A stretch of 64,000 bases of DNA, taken from the IMG/VR virus record IMGVR_UViG_3300023313_000004, positions 1 to 64,000 of that record. One strand, given 5' to 3'. Under the pieces are notes generated by a model. It ran no database searches and was not told where the DNA came from. It was given only the letters and a program-made list of their open reading frames with translations. This document shows positions 89 to 33,852 of the stretch, piece by piece. Numbering within the stretch: the first letter of the stretch is position 1; the number at the start of each line of letters is the position of its first letter. The translations under genes were made by a program, and so were the position numbers. This DNA is from a virus.

Positions 89-147
89 GTATAACAATTT
101 CATCCAATGGACTACGCTTCGCTTGCCTCTCATGCAAGCCGTTAGGC
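89..147 (+). mobile_element. attC: attC site (59 bp), integron cassette recombination site
   Basis: GTATAAC-AATTT-CATCCAAT...-GTTAGGC; R''/R' boxes, imperfect palindrome, same layout as the neighbouring sites. Confidence 0.8.
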
Positions 148-372: not shown

Positions 373-432
373 GCCTAACAATTAAATCAAGCAGACCTTC
401 GTTCCTCGGCTGCTTATTCTGTGCCGTTAGGT
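373..432 (+). mobile_element. attC: attC site (60 bp)
   Basis: GCCTAAC AATTA AATCAAGC ...GCTTATT CTGTGCC GTTAGGT: 8-nt L'' with the extra C pairs with 7-nt L'; canonical top-strand architecture. Confidence 0.9.
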
Positions 433-804: not shown

Positions 805-863
805 ACCTAACAATTTCATCAATCAGACTTCGCTACGCTCGCTGATTATTCGTGCCGTTATAA
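805..863 (+). mobile_element. attC: attC site (59 bp)
   Basis: ACCTAAC AATTT CATCAATC ...GATTATT CGTGCC GTTATAA. Confidence 0.9.
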
Positions 864-1066: not shown

Positions 1067-1121
1067 TTATAACAATCGCATCAAGAGGACTCTTCGAGCC
1101 TCTTACGCAGTGCCGTTAGCT
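1067..1121 (+). mobile_element. attC: attC site (55 bp)
   Basis: TTATAAC AATCG CATCAAGA GGACTCTTCGAGCC TCTTACG CAGTGCC GTTAGCT. Confidence 0.88.
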
Positions 1122-1214
1122 TTTTAATAATCTTTCACTGCAAGCTTGTACTACAGGTATAGCAACAGTGTCCCCAATCAAGTCATATAATTTAGGTTTT
1201 TCAATATTTATCAT
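1116..1214 (-). pseudogene. 32-aa remnant resembling the C-terminus (motif X) of a C5 DNA methyltransferase
   Basis: MINIEKPKLYDLIGDTVAIPVVQACSERLLKS*, similar to the Y..IGN.V.IPV motif X; ends in the attC R' box. Confidence 0.45.
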
Positions 1215-1219
1215 GTATA

Positions 1220-1519
1220 TTACTCCTTGGGGCAAAGCATATCATTAAGTTGAACTGCCTCTTGCGCTGCAATACCTATTTGTTTTCGCATACACACATG
1301 AATAGCTGAAACAACCCTGCGCTTTTCTTTCATGCTCAAGACCGAGCGGTCATGCCCTGTTAATTTTATGTACGATGTGCCACTAGCTGTCCAAATAGAT
1401 ATGCTTGGATTAGCTTTAAGCACAAAGCAATACTCATTTTGAACCCATAGCTTAGGATTGTCTTCTATAGCTTTAGCTAACTGCTCTATATCATCCCCAA
1501 TCTTATTCATAAACCACAT
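1220..1519 (-). CDS. hypothetical protein (decayed cassette)
   Basis: ORF track 1220..1555; AAGGAG RBS favours the ATG at 1519; half attC at its 5' end. Confidence 0.65.
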   Translation of the reverse strand: MWFMNKIGDDIEQLAKAIEDNPKLWVQNEYCFVLKANPSISIWTASGTSYIKLTGHDRSVLSMKEKRRVVSAIHVCMRKQIGIAAQEAVQLNDMLCPKE

Positions 1520-1537
1520 AGCCCATCTCCTTATTTT

Positions 1538-1559
1538 GCCTAACAATTTCATCAATCAG
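1538..1559 (+). mobile_element. truncated attC (R''-L'' half only)
   Basis: GCCTAACAATTTCATCAATCAG, nearly identical to the left half of attC 805-863; right half missing. Confidence 0.7.
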
Positions 1560-1578
1560 TAATCGTGGGGGGGTTTTT

Positions 1579-2583
1579 TCATTTAGGTAACTGGAGACGT
1601 ATCTCTTCCGCCAGTAGCTCCGCTAGCCTTGGGGGTACTGCATTCCCCACCATTTTATACCCAGCCAATACATTAGTGTATTTAAACTCAAAATCGTCAG
1701 GAAAAGTTTGTATCCTCGCACATTCCCGTACAGATAACCTTCTGTAAAGATGCTCCGCGCCCTTTTGAAACACATGGGCATCCTTTCCTACCCTTGGCAT
1801 AGGTGGTGCCTGTGGGTGTAAAGGTACTTGCCTCCCCCCTGCTTGTATAGTGAAGGATGGTTCTGCCCAAGACCTAACCCTATTTCTTGACATGAAGATA
1901 GGAGACCACCCTGACACCAGATACTCATGGTTTAGGGTTGAGGGCTGTGCCCTTATAGAGGGGGTGCTTGAAGGAGCTGGGCAGGCACTCCCTTCTAGGT
2001 CAGATATAGCATCTTGCAGGGTTAAGGATCTTTCTTTGTGGGTAGGGGCAGGAAAAACAAAAGTCGTCCCTAAATCCTCGCGCACCCCCACGAAAAAGAC
2101 TCTTTTTCTTGATTGGGGCACTCCATAGTCTTTTGCATCTAAGAGCTTAAAGGATAACCTGTACCCACACCCTCGAAGAAGCACTTTGATACATTCTAGG
2201 GCCTCGCTATTCCTATTGCTTAACATCCCCGATACATTCTCAGCTAAGAAAAACTTGGGTTGCTTCTCCTTAATCACTTTGATGAAATCGAAGAATAACT
2301 GACCTCTTTTATCGTCCAGCCCTCGTAAAGCCCCTGCCTCACTCCAGCTTTGGCAAGGTGGTCCTCCTATAACACCATCACAAGAGGGTATCTCCTCTGG
2401 GCATATAGACGTGATGCTTTTTGTATTGAGGGTTGTGCCCTTATGATTATGCCTAAAGGTATCTGCTATAGTCTTATCATTTTCATTCGCCCAGATAATA
2501 TCAAACCCAGCATTTCTAAACCCTAGGTCAAGCCCCCCTGCCCCAGAGAACAAGGACACCACTCTTAATAACTCTTTTTCCAT
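1579..2583 (-). CDS. DNA cytosine-C5 methyltransferase, M.HaeIII family (probably GGCC)
   Basis: FSGAGG, GGPPCQSWSEAG, ENV, QSRKR, IFMSRNRVRSW.EP.FTIQA.GRQ..LHPQAP target-recognition region, RRLSVRECARIQTFPD, GNAVPP; co-linear with M.HaeIII. Confidence 0.95.
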   Translation of the reverse strand: MEKELLRVVSLFSGAGGLDLGFRNAGFDIIWANENDKTIADTFRHNHKGTTLNTKSITSICPEEIPSCDGVIGGPPCQSWSEAGALRGLDDKRGQLFFDFIKVIKEKQPKFFLAENVSGMLSNRNSEALECIKVLLRGCGYRLSFKLLDAKDYGVPQSRKRVFFVGVREDLGTTFVFPAPTHKERSLTLQDAISDLEGSACPAPSSTPSIRAQPSTLNHEYLVSGWSPIFMSRNRVRSWAEPSFTIQAGGRQVPLHPQAPPMPRVGKDAHVFQKGAEHLYRRLSVRECARIQTFPDDFEFKYTNVLAGYKMVGNAVPPRLAELLAEEIRLQLPK

Positions 2584-2775
2584 AGTGCCTCCAAAAGGTA
2601 CGATACTACTACTGCTACAACTACTCTACGGGTCGTGCCTGTTGAGTCAGCACCTCGTTAGCCTTTTTTAGGCTCTCCAGCTCCAACTCCAGTTTCTCAA
2701 CCCTGTCTGCATAGGCATTTACTAAGCGGGATAGTTCACTACCTGTATCCCCTTGCCTCATCAAAGCACTTAGCT

Positions 2776-3555
2776 TCATCTCGAACCCCCCAATAGTACA
2801 TGCTGTAGGATACTGTGGCCTATAACCTCAGCTATTTGAGGCATGATACTATTCCCTATTTGTTTTAGCCTATCTCTGTCCAGTCGCCGCTGTACCCCAT
2901 CATTAACTCTGCGAACACTGGATTTAACCTGTGTGGGTCGCCCCCCTCCGCTGTCTCGCACTTCCACGTTTTCTGATGTAAATTTTTCAGCACCGTTCCA
3001 CGCAAATAGCATTTCTTTACATCTCTTGGTGTCCCACACCCCAAGGACTTCATATTGGGGTGGTTGCTGTCGCTCACGTTGGGGGTAGGCAATAATCCAA
3101 ATCCTTTCTCTTTTGTGTGGTGCACCAACGGAGGAAGCTGGGATAATGTGCCACTCCGCATCATACCCGATTTCCCATAAATCTTTGAGGACTCGTTCAA
3201 GTCCGTTATTTCGCAGGTTTGCCACATTCTCGATAATTGCATATTTAGGTTTAATCTCCTTTATCAGCCTATGGAACTCACTCCATAAACCACTCCTACT
3301 GCCTTCTTTTACTCCTGCGCCTTTACCTGCAACACTTATATCTTGGCAAGGGAAACCCCCACATATAACGTCAGCAGGTGCGCCCACCATCGTTGTTACG
3401 TCCCCATGGATGGGGGTGTGCTCCCAATGTTTTGATAAAACACGTTGGCATTGCTCGTCCACCTCGCAGAACTGTATAGTCTTAAACCCCCCTGTGCGTT
3501 CTAACCCCAGACTGAATCCGCCTATTCCGCTAAATAAATCAAGTACCGTAAGCAT
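2776..3555 (-). CDS. DNA cytosine-C5 methyltransferase, alpha-type chain (motifs I-VIII and X, no motif IX in this frame)
   Basis: LDLFSGIGG, GGFPCQD, ENV, APHKRERIW, RLKQIGNSIMPQ. Confidence 0.92.
   Translation of the reverse strand: MLTVLDLFSGIGGFSLGLERTGGFKTIQFCEVDEQCQRVLSKHWEHTPIHGDVTTMVGAPADVICGGFPCQDISVAGKGAGVKEGSRSGLWSEFHRLIKEIKPKYAIIENVANLRNNGLERVLKDLWEIGYDAEWHIIPASSVGAPHKRERIWIIAYPQRERQQPPQYEVLGVWDTKRCKEMLFAWNGAEKFTSENVEVRDSGGGRPTQVKSSVRRVNDGVQRRLDRDRLKQIGNSIMPQIAEVIGHSILQHVLLGGSR
2865..3242 (-). CDS. nested alternative-frame ORF, putative beta subunit of the C5 methyltransferase (motif IX)
   Basis: Same strand, shifted frame; LLPTPNVSD and RLNPVFAELMMGYSGDWT (motif IX-like); arrangement as in M.EcoHK31I; start codon uncertain. 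Confidence 0.6.
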   Translation of the reverse strand: MQLSRMWQTCEITDLNESSKIYGKSGMMRSGTLSQLPPLVHHTKEKGFGLLPTPNVSDSNHPNMKSLGCGTPRDVKKCYLRGTVLKNLHQKTWKCETAEGGDPHRLNPVFAELMMGYSGDWTEIG

Positions 3556-3588
3556 ATTATATCTCCTGTGTTGTTTCAGACTAATAAT
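3556..3588. repeat. 33-bp direct repeat copy 1 (RBS leader plus decayed attC R'')
   Basis: ATTATATCTCCTGTGTTGTTTCAGACTAATAAT, identical to 4375-4407. Confidence 0.9.
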
Positions 3589-3605
3589 TTCATTGATTCG
3601 TGGGG

Positions 3606-4376
3606 CTAGGCTTCTAGGAAGCAGCCGCAGCCTCCTATGTCGAACTTATCAATATTCAAAACCCCTGTTTCTACTCCCATCCTAAACTCTTTTAATGAGT
3701 AGTAAAAAAGCTTCTTATTTCTTGTAACTCTCAAAAAGGGGTGTCTCTTGCCTAGTGTTTCAAATAACCTCTCTTGCGCTATTTCAGACTCTTTATACTT
3801 CTCAGGGAAGTGTTTTAATACTTTAGCCCACTGCCCTTGACCTGCTTTGACACATGCCCCGTGGCAGTTGTTGTGGCTAAACCCTAATTGATATAGTAAT
3901 GGTATCGGTAATCCATCGTCCTCCACTATCTTCAACATATCTTTTTTGCTTAGATAAGGTTCTTCGCATAATGGGGCTTCTACCTTGTGTGTCACATGCT
4001 TCCTATGCGTCTCTAACCTGTGGCTCTCTGTCCAATCAATACCAAGATATATTGTAGGGCACTCTCCACCCTCGGCATCCAACCACTTAGCAAACACATC
4101 ACTTTTTAGCGTGGTTGAGCAGTGTGCCACCCTAGAGTTCCCTGCGTATTTTTTGTCCTCAAACACCTCCCATATACCTCGCCCATCACTAATCTTTATA
4201 AGGGGTACACCCAACACTTTCGCTGCTGAGTCTATGAAAGAATACAGGTCGGGGTGTTCTCCCTTAGTGTCTGTAAAGACTAAAACTGTATTCTCTGTGC
4301 CGTGGGCTTCGACTACGCGCTTCGCAGCAACGTAGCTGCCAATACCCCCAGAGAAACTAACTATATGTTTACTCAT
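3606..4376 (-). CDS. PAPS-reductase-like adenine nucleotide alpha hydrolase (PP-loop) family protein
   Basis: VSFSGGIGS PP-loop, FTDT..E, CS..LK, GF.HNNC.G.CVKAG, C-terminal GGCGCF. Confidence 0.8.
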   Translation of the reverse strand: MSKHIVSFSGGIGSYVAAKRVVEAHGTENTVLVFTDTKGEHPDLYSFIDSAAKVLGVPLIKISDGRGIWEVFEDKKYAGNSRVAHCSTTLKSDVFAKWLDAEGGECPTIYLGIDWTESHRLETHRKHVTHKVEAPLCEEPYLSKKDMLKIVEDDGLPIPLLYQLGFSHNNCHGACVKAGQGQWAKVLKHFPEKYKESEIAQERLFETLGKRHPFLRVTRNKKLFYYSLKEFRMGVETGVLNIDKFDIGGCGCFLEA

Positions 4377-4407
4377 TATATCTCCTGTGTTGTTTCAGAC
4401 TAATAAT
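4375..4407. repeat. 33-bp direct repeat copy 2
   Basis: identical to 3556-3588. Confidence 0.9.
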
Positions 4408-4533
4408 CGCTTGTCACGAGCGAAAGCAGGTATGTGTAGTTAAACGCTACGTCCTGCCTAGGGTTATGCGCTTGACTAGCATCCCTTCGCTAATTCACTC
4501 TACAAGCACTACATGGCTAATGCAGCATGTTAA

Positions 4534-4609
4534 GCCTAACAATCTTATCAAGCAGTATAAGTTACTGGTTACGTTATCCAGTGCAGCATTATCGTAGCTG
4601 CCGTTATTC
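4534..4609 (+). mobile_element. degenerate attC-like site
   Basis: GCCTAAC AATCT TATCAAGC ... TGCC GTTATTC; left boxes canonical, L' imperfect. Confidence 0.55.
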
Positions 4610-4945
4610 GACCGAGAACTCCCAATCCATTACACGCTACTGCCAGTTCAAATTGGTAGGCTGCCTTTCAATGCGTAGCACATCACTCGATTTTGTATTT
4701 CTACTGGCTCTTGAAACCTGCCTTTTTGATTATGCTATTAGACAAATAGCACACCCGTAACGGTGGGTGATACCAGTTGTCCGCTATTTATCACGGACTG
4801 ATTTAACCCCATCAGCCGATAAAGGCTACGGTCAAATCTTAGGGTTCGCCACCCATATCTCCCTGCTTGTGCACGTCTACACATATCACACGTCATTTCG
4901 TGTTCATCGTTTAAGCATCGTTGAGAGGCTTAGGGGAGTATTATT
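4610..4945. ncRNA. putative structured non-coding RNA in an ORF-less cassette
   Basis: No credible - strand ORF; tandem hairpins e.g. TGCTATT/AATAGCA, CACCC/GGGTG, GTCCG/CGGAC, CTGAT/ATCAG, ACACG/CGTGT. Confidence 0.35.
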
Positions 4946-4951
4946 TTTTAC

Positions 4952-5004
4952 TTATAACCTGCATAAAGAGGACTCATCGAACCTCTTACGCTGTGCCGTT
5001 ATAT
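4952..5004 (+). mobile_element. degenerate attC, homologous to attC 1067-1121
   Basis: TTATAAC CTG CATAAAGA GGACTCATCGAACC TCTTACG CTGTGCC GTTATAT; shortened spacer, extra C of L'' mutated. Confidence 0.75.
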
Positions 5005-5012
5005 TTCTAAAC

Positions 5013-5225
5013 TTACTGCCTTAACATACCCCTCTGCCTCACTGTCTTAGAAGGGTAAAACAGGCACGAACTACATACCCCTTTACCTGCTATAGCTATT
5101 CTGTGAAGTACCGCTGATTTACCGCGTCTCCACACATTAGGTAATCTAACTAATAGCCTACCTCTATAGCTCCATGATGCAGTGGTGGTAGTCATCCAAT
5201 GCCTCTCATGAGGTAATAATCTCAT
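5013..5225 (-). CDS. hypothetical protein (decayed cassette)
   Basis: 70 aa, AAGGAGG RBS; between attC 4952-5004 and a half site at about 5240. Confidence 0.5.
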   Translation of the reverse strand: MRLLPHERHWMTTTTASWSYRGRLLVRLPNVWRRGKSAVLHRIAIAGKGVCSSCLFYPSKTVRQRGMLRQ

Positions 5226-5234
5226 TCCACCCTC

Positions 5235-5271
5235 CTTCAGTACAACAATGTCCCCCCAACCAGACTTCGCT
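5235..5271 (+). mobile_element. decayed half attC
   Basis: CTTCAGTACAACAAT matches CTTCAGTATAACAAT at attC 89; CAGACTTCGCT matches attC 805. Confidence 0.5.
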
Positions 5272-5615
5272 TATAGGGGGTATTCAGCTCTCTTCTCAAA
5301 CCCTTCAGACACTAACAACTCAGATAGTGTTTTCACTCTATCTTGTAAGAGCACCGTAGCTATCCAACGACCATACTTCCCTGATTTCTCAGTTAGGATT
5401 GTAACTTCCTTGCCTTCTATCAAGTCTATAACCCTGTTCTTAGCCAGAATACCATGCTTACGTTCCGCCTCAGTCTTTGGTCGCCAAGTCTCTGGGGTGT
5501 CTATCCCCCTAAGCCTAAACCGTATTGCCGCAGTCATATGAAACCCTAGGTCTACCTTTGCATCAAACGTATCCCCATCTACCACTCTTGTAACCAATAC
5601 TCTATACCTATACAT
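5271..5615 (-). CDS. thermonuclease (staphylococcal nuclease-like)
   Basis: RVVDGDT, RLRGIDTPE, GKYGRWIA; start MYRY after GGAGG. Confidence 0.9.
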   Translation of the reverse strand: MYRYRVLVTRVVDGDTFDAKVDLGFHMTAAIRFRLRGIDTPETWRPKTEAERKHGILAKNRVIDLIEGKEVTILTEKSGKYGRWIATVLLQDRVKTLSELLVSEGFEKRAEYPL

Positions 5616-5834
5616 CCCTCTACCTCCTGTATGCAATAACAACTCTTAATATCTCTTCAGCGTATCTAACCGCCCCATCTCTTCCAACATCCCAACATTC
5701 TGCCTCTTATTCCTGTCCACCTTCATCTGGAGGGTGTACCACCTAGTAGTGGCTGCATCTATCTTATGGTCACTCTCTGGGCGGAGTGTATTCCCCTGAC
5801 CCAACTCTTTAGCTGTCATGCCCCAGAACCGTGC

Positions 5835-6038
5835 CTAGCGTAATACTCCTTCGACCTTGCCAAGGACAGTCTCCTGAGCTCTATCAGCAGTTTGTGCTTC
5901 TCTATCATTAACGCTGTCACCTTCATAACCCTTACCCTTGTTACTCAATTCTCTTAATTCCCTTTCCAGAAGGGTAATCTTACGCTCATATTGCGCTATC
6001 TTCCCTAGAAGTACAGCCCTTTCCTCTACTACCCTCAT
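5835..6038 (-). CDS. hypothetical coiled-coil protein
   Basis: GGAGG RBS, 67 aa. Confidence 0.5.
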   Translation of the reverse strand: MRVVEERAVLLGKIAQYERKITLLERELRELSNKGKGYEGDSVNDREAQTADRAQETVLGKVEGVLR

Positions 6039-6052
6039 AACCCCAAACCCTC

Positions 6053-6343
6053 CTAAAACTGCCTAATAATATATGTGCCCACCTCAGGCACTGGTATCAC
6101 CTGTGTCCACAGCTCCAAGTCCCCAAGAGACGCGATAGCATCATAATCCCTAATAAAAGCCTCTAACGTATCCTCTCTATACTCACAACAAATAGAGACA
6201 CCATCAAACTCCTGCCCCTTACCTTCTTCCTCTTCCGTCAGGTACTCAAACAATGCCCTTCGCCCCTCAACACTGAAAGACTCCTCTCTGTCCATATCCC
6301 TAAACCACTGCACAAACATGCTCTCTGTCAACTCTATATACAT
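6053..6343 (-). CDS. hypothetical phage protein
   Basis: acidic 96 aa with F...F....R...FS.EG..ALFEYL and ICCEY.E pattern; AAGGAGG RBS. Confidence 0.7.
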   Translation of the reverse strand: MYIELTESMFVQWFRDMDREESFSVEGRRALFEYLTEEEEGKGQEFDGVSICCEYREDTLEAFIRDYDAIASLGDLELWTQVIPVPEVGTYIIRQF

Positions 6344-6376
6344 ACCCTAACCTCCTTTTCTTATTGTCATATACCG

Positions 6377-6586
6377 TTATATTTCTAAGCTGTCTTGTTC
6401 TTCTTCACTTAATGCTAGGAACCTGTCTATCATCTTATAAAACTTCTGCCCGACCCTCTCTCTTGGCTCAAAGTTCTTTTTCACAGGGTGCGGTGGTGTC
6501 ATCCTGTTTCTTGAATACTCAAACATCCACCCTTCATACTCATAGAAGGTAGGCATAGATATATGTATTAGGTTAAATTCACTCAT
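6377..6586 (-). CDS. hypothetical protein
   Basis: ATGA overlap with upstream gene; ends in CCGTTATATTTCTAA, the same 15-mer as the R' end of attC 4952-5004. Confidence 0.6.
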   Translation of the reverse strand: MSEFNLIHISMPTFYEYEGWMFEYSRNRMTPPHPVKKNFEPRERVGQKFYKMIDRFLALSEEEQDSLEI

Positions 6587-6795
6587 TGCACCTCCTTAAT
6601 ATAAACCCATAACGGGGAGTATTTACTAGTGTAATTTTTACTTGTCTTGTAATAAAGCCTTAAATGCCTGCCACTGGTCTTACCCGATTTCATGTATTTA
6701 TCTGCTTGAATAAGAGCACTCTCAAAAGCTCTATCCACAAAGAAACGTACGCCACCTCCGTTCATATCCACTATTTTACATTTTTGTTCTGACAT
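6583..6795 (-). CDS. hypothetical protein
   Basis: AGGAGG RBS; L''-like remnant ATTTCATCAATCAG at 6808-6821. Confidence 0.6.
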   Translation of the reverse strand: MSEQKCKIVDMNGGGVRFFVDRAFESALIQADKYMKSGKTSGRHLRLYYKTSKNYTSKYSPLWVYIKEVQ

Positions 6796-6817
6796 ACACC
6801 CTCCTATATTTCATCAA

Positions 6818-7021
6818 TCAGGCCTGACTTACCTTGCCAGTACATGCATTCACATCGTGTAGCAGCTCCCCAGTCCCAAAAGGGCTGAATATCTGAGCCC
6901 CACACTTTGGACAACCTCGGCTGGTTCTACACTCCATCTTGAAATGTTCGCATTCAGTCACATACCCGTTGCGTGTATCAATAATATCAGTACCACATTT
7001 TCCGCAGGAAAAACTACTCAT
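6818..7021 (-). CDS. small Cys-rich (zinc-ribbon) hypothetical protein
   Basis: CGKCG and CPKCG motifs. Confidence 0.55.
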   Translation of the reverse strand: MSSFSCGKCGTDIIDTRNGYVTECEHFKMECRTSRGCPKCGAQIFSPFGTGELLHDVNACTGKVSQA

Positions 7022-7331
7022 CCTCGCCCCCCAAAACACCCAAGCAGTCCTTCAGCACATGCCCCAACAAACTCTCTGTATTGGCTAACACAGCGCAGAT
7101 ACGCACACCCTCTTGATGATGCCCCTGCCCACACATCTCCACCCACTGCAAATACTTCCTGACAATCAACAACTCTTGGTCTGCATCCTCAAAAGGCAAA
7201 AACAAAAACGCCTCCGTCTCACTGATGCACACCTCAGGTTCTAACTCCCCACTCAACCGCACAGTGAAGTCAGGGTACAACCACTTAGCCAAGATGACCT
7301 GCTCCTGCAATGTAGTCCCTTCTAAAACCAT
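7014..7331 (-). CDS. hypothetical protein, first gene after the promoter at 7385
   Basis: GGAGGG RBS before ATG 7331. Confidence 0.6.
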   Translation of the reverse strand: MVLEGTTLQEQVILAKWLYPDFTVRLSGELEPEVCISETEAFLFLPFEDADQELLIVRKYLQWVEMCGQGHHQEGVRICAVLANTESLLGHVLKDCLGVLGGEDE

Positions 7332-7356: not shown

Positions 7357-7385
7357 ATACTACTCCTTAGTGATACACTTGTCAA
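7357..7385 (-). promoter_or_regulatory. sigma70-type promoter driving the accessory/cassette region
   Basis: TTGACA-N17-TAGTAT, AT-rich upstream. Confidence 0.75.
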
Positions 7386-7691
7386 CATAATAAATAAAAC
7401 CCCAAGAAAATCCCCCAGTATTTTTTTGTATTGCCAGCACAGCGCACCCAAACACTATCTGATTTCTGGTATTGCCCTGCCTATAACTACCCTATATTAA
7501 GATATGCCCTAGAAACTTTTTCACGGTGTTTTTGCAAAGTTCCTGAGTAAGAATGGCTAAATACTCCCATTGTTGGTTTTTGAAAAAAGAGTATTTAGAT
7601 GACTATTTCTACTTTTTGCCCTTAAGCACCCTTTTTTGCCCTTAAATAAAAATATACCAACACTCCCCCTGCTTGGTCATAACCGCCCAAC

Positions 7692-7714
7692 ACCCCCATG
7701 AACTTAAGTGCATA
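7692..7714. repeat. near-palindromic motif ACCCCCATGAACTTAAGTGCATA
   Basis: identical 23-mer at 59512-59534; 20-bp inverted copy at 10946-10965. Confidence 0.85.
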
Positions 7715-8430
7715 CCCCCTTACACAACACTTCCGCCCCTGCTGACTTAACCACCCTAACTGCCCAATATATATAGCCTTATATGAAAATATTACTAAAA
7801 ATACCCCATGCATTTACGGTACTATAACCAAAAACGAGAGCCAAAACGCCCCCCCAAATGGAAGCCTAGAGGGGGTGGGGGTTAGCGGCTCAAATTATTT
7901 TTCATCGGGGAAATCCAGAAAAACCCCGATAAAAACCCCATATGCCATTCCGAAATAGACGGCGGAGTTCCAACCTGTGATGCTATCTAGTGCCAGCAGT
8001 GGAATAAGAATAGCGAACCACATTATAATCAGGAAGCCTATAGTGCAGGTTACAGGGGCTTGGTTGTCGTTATGTGTTACACCTTACCCCCCTGCAAGCT
8101 TGGCTTGTAAGCATGAAGCATAAGCCCTTGATTATAATACATAAAACCCTTCGCGTGTGTTGTCATTATATCGCCTCCTATGGCTATGTTGTCTCTAATA
8201 TCCAGCGGCATAGCGTACAGGCAGCGGCTATAAAGCTGGACTTAGAATGTGTTATTGATTTATTCTTGCTATGTTATTGCTATGTTATTAACTGTCCTGC
8301 TGTGTTACTGAATGTTGTTTATTGTTTCTATTTCCGTGTTACATTTACTCTTATTATTCTATTGTTGTTTATCTATATTATTATACTAATCGCCCCCTAA
8401 TCCTTTTTCATATCATTTATATTGTGGGTT

Positions 8431-8458
8431 ATTCTAAGCCCTTCTTTACACTTGTCAA
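8431..8458 (-). promoter_or_regulatory. sigma70-type promoter
   Basis: TTGACA-N16-TAGAAT with the shared TTGACAAGTG -35 context. Confidence 0.6.
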
Positions 8459-8476
8459 CATTTATTATTTTGTGTA

Positions 8477-32777: not shown

Positions 32778-33383
32778 TTACGCTAAGCTAGCAAGTATGC
32801 CTGCAGCCATGGCCTCTGCCAAATAAGAGTGCTTATTGGATAATAGCCACTCCTCACAAAAACCATTATTATCTATATACCCTATTTCTGGGATAAAGGC
32901 AGGGCAGTTAGTCTTCCTTAAGAAATAATCCGCTTGTTCTGGAGGGTTATTACCCCAGTACCACCCCTGCCTAGCACCTAAGTCCTCTAGCCCTATGTAC
33001 TCGGACATGCGATAAGACATCTCAGCAGCCTCTCCCCGCCTAATGTAAGCTAGGCTATCCTGCTGACCATAAGAACCATGAGGGCAGTACATAACCATAC
33101 AGCCATGACCCCTTGTGTCATCCCTATCCTCAGGGTCTAACCTATCGAAGTCAGCATTAAAGTGTACGTCCACAGCCATATCAAAAGAGCCAGCATTTAT
33201 AGTATTAACCTTTCTCCTCAGACCCCCACCAACCACTACGGGGGTATGCCCAAGTGCCTTTAGCAGGTCGAACAACACCCCTACTACTACACTAGCCTCA
33301 TCAAACTCATTTAAGGAGTACTTCTTATTAACTGCACCTTTTGCAGATTGCTTATGCCCAGCGCACAACGCTATTTTAGCCAT
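32778..33383 (-). CDS. endolysin, N-acetylmuramoyl-L-alanine amidase (Amidase_3)
   Basis: AGH...GA...E, VHFNA, FLRKT.CPA.I.EIGYIDN. Confidence 0.88.
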   Translation of the reverse strand: MAKIALCAGHKQSAKGAVNKKYSLNEFDEASVVVGVLFDLLKALGHTPVVVGGGLRRKVNTINAGSFDMAVDVHFNADFDRLDPEDRDDTRGHGCMVMYCPHGSYGQQDSLAYIRRGEAAEMSYRMSEYIGLEDLGARQGWYWGNNPPEQADYFLRKTNCPAFIPEIGYIDNNGFCEEWLLSNKHSYLAEAMAAGILASLA

Positions 33384-33852
33384 GATTATAACCCTTAGCC
33401 TCACCTACATATATCGGTTGGGGGTTTCCCATAACCGAAAGTATTGCCTTTGCCTTCAGCCTTTTAATCGGCGCGTAGGGGATATTAAGTTTTTTGGATA
33501 GCACTTCTAGTACCCACTCATGGCAGTACACTTTACTACTATCCTCTACCCCTGCTAGCCACCCAAAGACACCTAACCAATCATACTTCCTACCCATTTG
33601 GGCATTTACCCACCGCAGTACCTCTTCTTGGGTAGCAGCGGTATCAGGAGCACCCACATCATAAATGGCTACCTGCCTAGAGCCATAATCTGATAATCTC
33701 TTGCCAAACCACACATACCCTCGTACCTCAGAGGCATCATATATCTGACCACCCACTACTACTGCAGAGTGGGAGTAAGGACTCCTAGTTATAATAGATA
33801 TAAATATGGAGGCTAAGCTTGTGTAATCCGTGTTAAAAAATACTACTTTCAT
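33376..33852 (-). CDS. permuted papain-like NlpC/P60 (YiiX-like) protein
   Basis: T.SPYSH, G..YDW.G, YC.EWV. Confidence 0.75.
   Translation of the reverse strand: MKVVFFNTDYTSLASIFISIITRSPYSHSAVVVGGQIYDASEVRGYVWFGKRLSDYGSRQVAIYDVGAPDTAATQEEVLRWVNAQMGRKYDWLGVFGWLAGVEDSSKVYCHEWVLEVLSKKLNIPYAPIKRLKAKAILSVMGNPQPIYVGEAKGYNHG

Follow-up and report, generated by a model that had tools for sequence, protein, structure and literature searches.

Do the small minus-strand genes at the left end of a mat phage genome form an integron-type cassette array, and where would its cassettes have entered? The locus is in IMG/VR record IMGVR_UViG_3300023313_000004 (G000, 75572 bp), which originates from a microbial-mat metagenome and whose DNA polymerase is ~42% identical to that of SIO-2-like Vibrio phages. 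Bases 1–64000 of this record are the stretch analysed here (the window). The initial annotation of the window had described attC recombination sites that decay from left to right. It had also proposed that the insertion point lies left of the window and that the accessory genes, possibly including methyltransferases and a nuclease, are a fossilised cassette array. The ends of the record repeat 127 bp (1–127 are identical to 75446–75572) and the record is a circular assembly. Thus, the left side of the window is the other end of the record, for which genome positions are given below. For comparison, two unrelated phage contigs were used, IMGVR_UViG_3300013233_000191 (G001) and IMGVR_UViG_3300023313_000024 (G405, a fragment). 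We consider it likely that the region from genome position 75157 to about window position 7040, in which all genes are on the minus strand, is an integron-type cassette array without an integrase, i.e., a phage-borne cluster of attC sites lacking an integrase (CALIN) with a docking site (Table 1).

The repeats of G000 are true attC-type sites. Five full sites of G000 and 12 sites of G001 were aligned (17 sites of 53–63 bp), and their TAAC and GTTA ends were invariant. The G000 sites possess the build of attC, which consists of R'' (RYYYAAC), L'', a variable loop, L' and R' (GTTRRRY) in an imperfect palindrome of 50–150 bp. In the L box, compensatory changes were found in 4 pairs (26 cells), and 95% of the cells were paired, which was reached by 0/500 shuffles; controls with slid partners gave 18–52%. 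Extrahelical bases on the R''-L'' arm identify the bottom strand of an attC. In the phage sites, the unpaired base, where ATcAAGCAG pairs with CTGCTTAT, was in the same register as in GTTcAAGCC of the attC of aadA1 from the class 1 integron of plasmid R100. On its top strand, the aadA1 attC has an extra C and an extra A in the arm beside R'', with a spacer of 5 nt on this side and 6 nt on the other side. The phage sites share this build on the plus strand, including RYYYAAC, a 5-nt spacer, L'' with the extra C and A, a loop with CGCTTCGC, L', a 6–7-nt spacer and GTTRRRY. Thus, the plus strand corresponds to the top strand, with the genes on the bottom strand. Different from aadA1 in R100, a top-strand gene that points toward its attC and is transcribed from the promoter Pc beside attI1, the G000 genes run in the opposite direction, toward the attI-like site described below. 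The opposite polarity, in which the crossover is at the R'' end and the minus strand is the top strand, would give the classical gene orientation. It was rejected because the extra bases and spacers match the top strand of the aadA1 attC and because the conserved terminal element sits at the position expected of attI.

A covariance model built from the 17 sites identified five full sites in G000 (at 805, 89, 373, 1067, and 4952; E 2e-8 or better) and had no match in the remaining 68-kb core, which served as the chance control for the 6.96-kb array region. With five full sites on a 75-kb record without a detected integrase, the locus falls into the CALIN class of IntegronFinder (at least two attC sites, no integrase nearby). 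Among the sites up to 1121, all of which had been described as intact, those at 373, 805, and 1067 are so, but the one at 89–147 is full length and chimeric, and its halves match sites S8 (28/29) and S5 (25/25) of G001. The site at 4952–5004 had been taken for a mutated copy of the 1067 site. It is a close copy, whose spacer is shorter by 2 nt and whose extrahelical C is replaced by A, but it is structurally complete. A second chimeric site was found at L019 7271–7329. In both chimeric sites, the arms of two subtypes are joined within the common loop motif CGCTWCGC, which suggests homologous or microhomology exchange between sites on top of integrase crossover. One more candidate, within the first ORF (open reading frame; genome 75275–75330), reached only the 99th percentile of controls and is treated as doubtful. 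A search of the window against Rfam had no match.

Integron cassette arrays are recognised by the pairing of each R'' with the R' of its predecessor instead of the R' of the same site, the crossover being at G/TT (the slash marks the crossover point). In G001, the six bases outside the core matched the previous R' at 4.1/6 positions and the own R' at 1.9/6, which was reached by 0/20000 permutations. The three junctions of G000 gave 5.0/6 and 1.25/6, respectively (p 0.04). Several junctions pair across 7–8 bases. For instance, the R'' of 805–863 complements the preceding R' at 5/6 positions outside the TAA/TTA core and over 8 contiguous bp that include the core (ACACCTAA with TTAGGTGT). In G405, TCCTAAC pairs with GTTAGGA. 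Judged from the junction sequences, this offset pairing demonstrates that site-specific recombination at the canonical G/TT point brought the cassettes together.

The junctions also bear on whether the repeats could be regulatory stem-loops of the phage, i.e., terminator/promoter units shuffled by homologous recombination, similar to the PeSL (promoter/stem-loop) cassettes of T4-type phages. PeSL cassettes, which carry promoters and act by homologous recombination, are short repeats on either side of small accessory early genes and enable modular shuffling in phages. The repeats of G000 are also placed between small early genes, and the two chimeric sites joined inside the loop point to some homologous exchange. 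However, the hairpins are weak and without a T-run, their folding energies are not distinct from those of shuffles, and, different from PeSL, the sites show integron crossover logic and no consistent promoter. Moreover, the shifted R''/R' complementarity cannot come from homologous exchange between repeats, and the sites match the aadA1 attC arm for arm. We regard regulatory stem-loops as a scarcely credible explanation.

An attI-like site was found left of the window, where the insertion point had been predicted. Between thyX (genome 74573–75151) and the first cassette is an attI-like stretch that ends GTATTACCTAG/TTATATTTC at 75213/75214. The same 14 bases, together with ~60 bp that are partly conserved, are found in G001 ahead of a ninB-like gene, and G405 has an attI-like site ahead of yet another gene. 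In all three contigs, conservation stops at G/TTA and a typical cassette start (TTAGGCTTC or TTATATTTC) comes next. This stretch has the position and junction expected of attI and is a putative docking site. Besides it, the left side yielded one more cassette, but no further intact attC and no IntI. Six-frame searches with PF00589 (tyrosine recombinase) at E ≤ 10 gave no match in G000, G001, and the fragment G405, and the control genomes all matched. A tyrosine recombinase with the IntI-specific insertion beside attI, as in a complete integron, was found in none of the three records. The proteomes of G000 and G001 have just one gene in common, which is a cassette gene. Thus, no shared phage-encoded recombinase is in view.

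An integrase that is undetected in all three contigs would also fit a block of a bacterial chromosomal integron (attI without intI) that was captured once and is simply decaying, with no cassette traffic in phages. Generic attC sites of similar build do occur in marine gammaproteobacterial genomes; in 151 genomes of one gammaproteobacterial order, only such sites were found, with at most 48.7 bits and in classical gene orientation. Nevertheless, a single capture is unlikely, as the same platform is present in three unrelated phages with different cassettes and before different genes, two unrelated phages have one site in common at 55/55 identity, and alternative neighbours occur at the same sites within one sample. 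In addition, the cassette genes are all antisense with their own ribosome-binding sites, unlike those of the bacterial array sampled, and the genomes searched yielded no bacterial copy of the attC family or the attI-like site. Matches to the attI-like pattern in 401 sampled bacterial genomes were no commoner than those to a control pattern. With a 20-nt left-arm pattern, chance matches in bacterial genomes were saturating, and the covariance model gave no score to any of the 80 loci listed. Two scans of metagenomes gave no further members of the attC family, and relatives of thyX, the zinc-ribbon gene and the PAPS-reductase-like gene led to no further arrays.

Fragments of sites were searched by short-query BLAST with the sites and their 15-nt flanks as queries, and matches outside the full sites were counted. 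At ≥26 bits, there were 7 matches on the plus strand of the 6.96-kb region and 2 (plus) and 0 (minus) in the 68-kb core; at ≥28 bits, the numbers were 5, 0, and 0, respectively. Rather than being equally dense in both, remnants were ~30 times denser in the array region than in the core. Those of the array region occur on the plus strand only and at gene borders. Left-arm remnants all lie immediately upstream of start codons on the minus strand, and R' remnants are all at stop codons, as in intact cassettes. An nhmmer profile from the G001 sites alone recovered 1538, then 4534 and 6808. Most of the fragments listed in the initial annotation are real and several are longer than described. The half site at 1538–1559 extends into its flank, the one at 3581–3600 is part of a site from which ~26 nt of the stem-loop were deleted internally, and the 14 bases at 6808–6821 continue into an identical flank, the whole scoring 34 by Smith-Waterman, above the maximum of 33 among 400 core control windows. 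The stretch CCGTTATATTTCTAA at 4996 and 6374 is indeed 15/15 identical, with another 14/14 copy at genome 75214. The site at 4534–4609 retains a good left arm but is weaker overall, and 5235–5271 only equals the maximum of the control windows. A site at about 4400–4470 does not score, and only 4376–4407 stands there.

Two observations concern the flanks of the sites. The identical 32-nt leader at 3556–3587 and 4376–4407, which consists of a ribosome-binding site plus degenerate R'', precedes methyltransferase 2 and also the PAPS-reductase-like gene, which is adjacent but unrelated to it, and cassettes of G001 and G405 have related leaders (TTGTTTCAG beside R''). In the core, 33376–33392 (17 nt, 94%) and 33569–33581 (13 nt, exact), both on the plus strand, were among the best matches to site flanks. 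They are 200 bp apart inside ORFs without attC structure and are probably due to chance.

Methyltransferase 2 provides direct evidence, at the level of sequence comparison, for the idea of fossil cassettes. Its homolog is the first cassette of G405, with 84.8% amino acid identity and 86.7% nucleotide identity across 760 nt. At the DNA level, the similarity starts at 2825, includes the leader and ends with the TAA of R''. In G405, the gene is between the attI-like site and an intact attC of 54 bits, and it uses the TTA of the junction as stop codon. In G000, only the deleted remnant at 3564–3615 is present at its attC position. Similarly, the zinc-ribbon gene at 6818–7039 shows 82% nucleotide and 87% amino acid identity to a G001 gene between the intact sites S5 and S6. 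The proposal of a fossil cassette array thus stands for these two genes, but a cassette origin is no more than possible for the nuclease block at 5271–6343, which has no internal site traces and whose junction scores are at the null level. Methyltransferase 1 is possibly a former cassette. We infer that such genes were fixed by loss of attC. Inside methyltransferase 2, we also noticed an ORF of 125 amino acids in another frame (window 2865–3242, minus strand; L180 11648–12025, plus strand). Its amino acid identity in G405 is 88.7%, above that of the main frame and consistent with a genuine second product.

Contig branching in the source sample coincides with the sites, with loose ends at 69, 398, 862, 1119, 1207, and 4565, the last of which is inside the degenerate site 4534–4609. 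In one variant contig, the sequence just upstream of methyltransferase 2 (ending at 3567) continues into the left arm of an intact-type attC, an arrangement shared with G405. An assembly graph that branches at sites, and record ends that lie in a site (127-bp end overlap), could mean that the order of the array is an assembly artefact, in which cassettes of the community were stitched at shared repeats. However, the sites (53–60 bp) are below the 127-bp overlap. Moreover, contig depth is even (166–230), including 215 across cassettes (420–835) and 216 across distal genes (6648–7320), which argues against chimeric assembly. A stitched order is very unlikely.

The integrity score of the sites falls with their order from the attI-like end (Spearman rho -0.58, p 0.015, n = 17), and the four attI-proximal junctions are all full length (hypergeometric p ~0.003–0.01, by our own arithmetic and post hoc). 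The polar decay gradient of the initial annotation therefore persists as a trend, with intact sites clustered near the attI-like end, but it is not a clean age gradient, and sites were lost by deletion rather than by divergence.

Several points weigh against an integrase-less array with polar decay. The role of the attI-like site is drawn from its conservation and junction position, no integrase, host or recombination event was seen in the three contigs and the contig-level sample data, and the evidence from the source sample consists of contigs and not raw reads. The gene orientation is opposite to that of classical cassettes. The attC attached to the methyltransferase is of a different subtype in G000 than in G405, so that either sites were exchanged between cassettes or sites do not travel strictly with the gene. 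Finally, the order of decay is not monotonic, the nearest site (89–147) being chimeric and the distant one at 4952–5004 complete; the far fragments at 6374 and 6797–6821 are 100% identical to live sites, without a gradient of divergence, which indicates loss by deletion and not age-graded divergence; and G001 shows no decay, as 12/12 of its sites are intact whatever their position.

The last three points, together with losses that are stem-loop deletions, would also suit an array that is real but in which the pattern of intact and decayed sites reflects no age gradient. Hairpins could have been deleted by chance or by selection near the promoter, the attI-like end being merely promoter-distal. 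In the variant with selection, hairpins before heavily used early genes such as methyltransferases would be costly. As a promoter-like site is at the decayed end, selection against hairpins near the promoter would yield the same polarity. The run of four full-length attI-proximal sites speaks against this explanation, as does the position of the methyltransferase, which is first and live in G405 and deep and fossil in G000. We hold it to be a real possibility, although on balance not the expected one.

Table 1. Features of the cassette array of G000 (window positions unless marked as genome positions; aa, amino acids)
Feature	Position	Strand	Remarks
attI-like site, 60 bp	genome 75157–75213		ends ACCTAG/TTA, 232 bp left of window position 1
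First cassette gene, 94-aa ORF (start)	1–62, continues genome 75223–75445	-	circular reading; adjoins attI-like site
attC, full length but chimeric	89–147	+	covariance model 68.5 bits; arms of two subtypes; 3/8 L-box pairs broken
Cassette gene, 66 aa	150–350	-	no known family
attC, intact	373–432	+	covariance model 61.3 bits; R'' GCCTAA complements preceding R' TTAGGC
Cassette gene, 115 aa	427–774	-	P-loop NTPase-like; stop codon is TTA of R' box
attC, intact	805–863	+	55/55 identical to site S1 of G001 (unrelated phage)
Cassette gene, 65 aa	867–1064	-	PHROG 21988
attC, intact	1067–1121	+	covariance model 57.8 bits; 94% identical to attC behind methyltransferase cassette of G405
Two ORFs without site between, 32 aa (1116–1213) and 99 aa (1220–1519)	1116–1519	-	sample contig breakpoint at 1207
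Remnant, leader and R''-L'' arm	1532–1559	+	loop and right arm lost; 28/28 to G001 S2; nhmmer E 0.016
C5 DNA methyltransferase 1, 334 aa	1579–2583	-	Pfam PF00145, E 4e-93
C5 DNA methyltransferase 2, 259 aa	2776–3555	-	fossilised cassette; homolog in G405
Remnant, leader with mutated R'' (TAAT) and right arm with mutated R' (GCTAGGC)	3564–3615	+	27/30 leader and R'', 22/25 right arm
PAPS-reductase-like protein, 256 aa	3606–4376	-	Pfam PF01507; stop codon overlaps mutated R' box
Exact 32-nt copy of leader and R''-like stretch 3556–3587	4376–4407	+	then no recognisable site
Degenerate site	4534–4609	+	good left arm 4534–4557, middle disrupted, R'-like end GCCGTTA; covariance E 0.039; Smith-Waterman 43 vs. 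null maximum 33
attC, structurally complete	4952–5004	+	covariance model 39.9 bits, E 2e-8; 90% identical to 1067–1121
Weak remnant, leader, R''-like stretch and loop (CAGACTTCGCT)	5235–5271	+	right arm lost; 14/15, 11/11; Smith-Waterman 33, equal to null maximum
Four tightly packed genes, SNase-like nuclease and three small ORFs	5271–6343	-	Pfam PF00565
Remnant, R' box and cassette start (CCG/TTATATTTCTAA)	6374–6388	+	15/15 to 4996–5010
Gene	6377–6586	-	stop codon is TTA of R' remnant 6374–6388
Remnant, leader and spacer-L'' part (ATTTCATCAATCAG)	6797–6821	+	R'' and right arm lost; 11/11 (6797–6807), 14/14 (6808–6821)
Zinc-ribbon gene, 73 aa	6818–7039	-	former cassette; G001 homolog between intact sites
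Sigma-70-like promoter TTGACA-17-TAGTAT	7357–7385	-	consensus scan only; would drive whole array leftwards

All ORFs of the array are antisense to attC, each with its own ribosome-binding site beside R'' and a stop codon in or beside R'. In classical integrons, the top strand carries the ORFs, which point toward attC and are transcribed from Pc at attI; here, the promoter-like site is at the far end. For the P-loop cassette protein, a single distant relative was found. The ORF pair at 1116–1519 is probably two fused cassettes. By eye, the 32-aa ORF of this pair, on the minus strand and containing DLIGDTVAIPVV, resembles the C-terminal motif X of C5 methyltransferases, and it may be a gene fragment left within the cassette. 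Between two site remnants, the ~540 bp at 4410–4950 contain no convincing gene, with a small hairpin at 4407–4423, and may be a decayed or gene-less cassette. Beyond the array, the 1 kb at 7452–8476 has few ORFs, a terminator-like hairpin (7874–7849) and two strong minus-strand sigma-70-like promoters (8458–8431 and 7385–7357), and is probably an early control region.

If the locus is an integrase-less cassette array, the recombinase would be an integron integrase of the host cell, which would act in trans on folded bottom strands and insert cassettes at the attI-like site. Transcription from the promoter-like site at 7385–7357 toward the attI-like end would read all bottom-strand genes. The bottom strand is the coding, G-rich strand and probably the lagging-strand template, which would favour folding. 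In most of the deeper sites, the stem-loop or one arm has been deleted, and with it the ability to fold. As sites that are unable to fold would no longer recombine, the genes beside them (the methyltransferase, the zinc-ribbon protein and probably others) would be fixed in the phage genome.

Clusters of attC sites without an integrase were previously described in virulent phages, and IntI1 acted on 5/6 phage attC sites in recombination assays (Qi, Rajabal, Ghaly, Tetu and Gillings, 2023; PMC9892861). Similar to those CALINs, the locus of G000 combines attC sites and cassettes in a phage genome without an integrase, and DNA methyltransferases are among the cargo. Different from them, the array of each of three unrelated phages is bordered by a conserved 60-bp attI-like site, a putative docking site, and all genes are antisense to attC, whereas co-oriented cassettes are described as typical in that paper. 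In addition, one array shows stepwise site loss, and the words "decay" and "degenerate" are absent from the main text of that paper. The locus also resembles sedentary chromosomal integrons, such as the Vibrio arrays with homogeneous attC repeats, in having one attC family throughout, R'' boxes that complement the preceding R', and small cassettes of mostly unknown function. It differs from them by the lack of intI, sites of 53–63 bp, bottom-strand genes and its location in phage genomes of 28–75 kb. The shared attI-like platform, the consistent antisense build, and the live and fossil states of one gene are new here.

As a tentative proposal, possible rather than probable, unrelated phages of one mat may share a platform, composed of the 60-bp attI-like site and one attC family, through which they would trade phage-adapted antisense cassettes by means of the integrase of the infected cell. 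The antisense build would put the recombining bottom strand on the coding, G-rich and probably lagging-template strand and would let phage read-through express the cassettes, and loss of the hairpin would fix genes such as anti-restriction methyltransferases.

Our results from this study give a gene-by-gene view of one way in which accessory regions of phages may arise, with the arrival of cassettes at a docking site and their permanence via deletion of recombination sites. The same methyltransferase is live in one phage and fossil in another. The results also suggest that cassettes move between unrelated phages with the help of a host enzyme. Such traffic would link integrons, which are now known as stores of anti-phage defences, with the counter-defence repertoire of phages.

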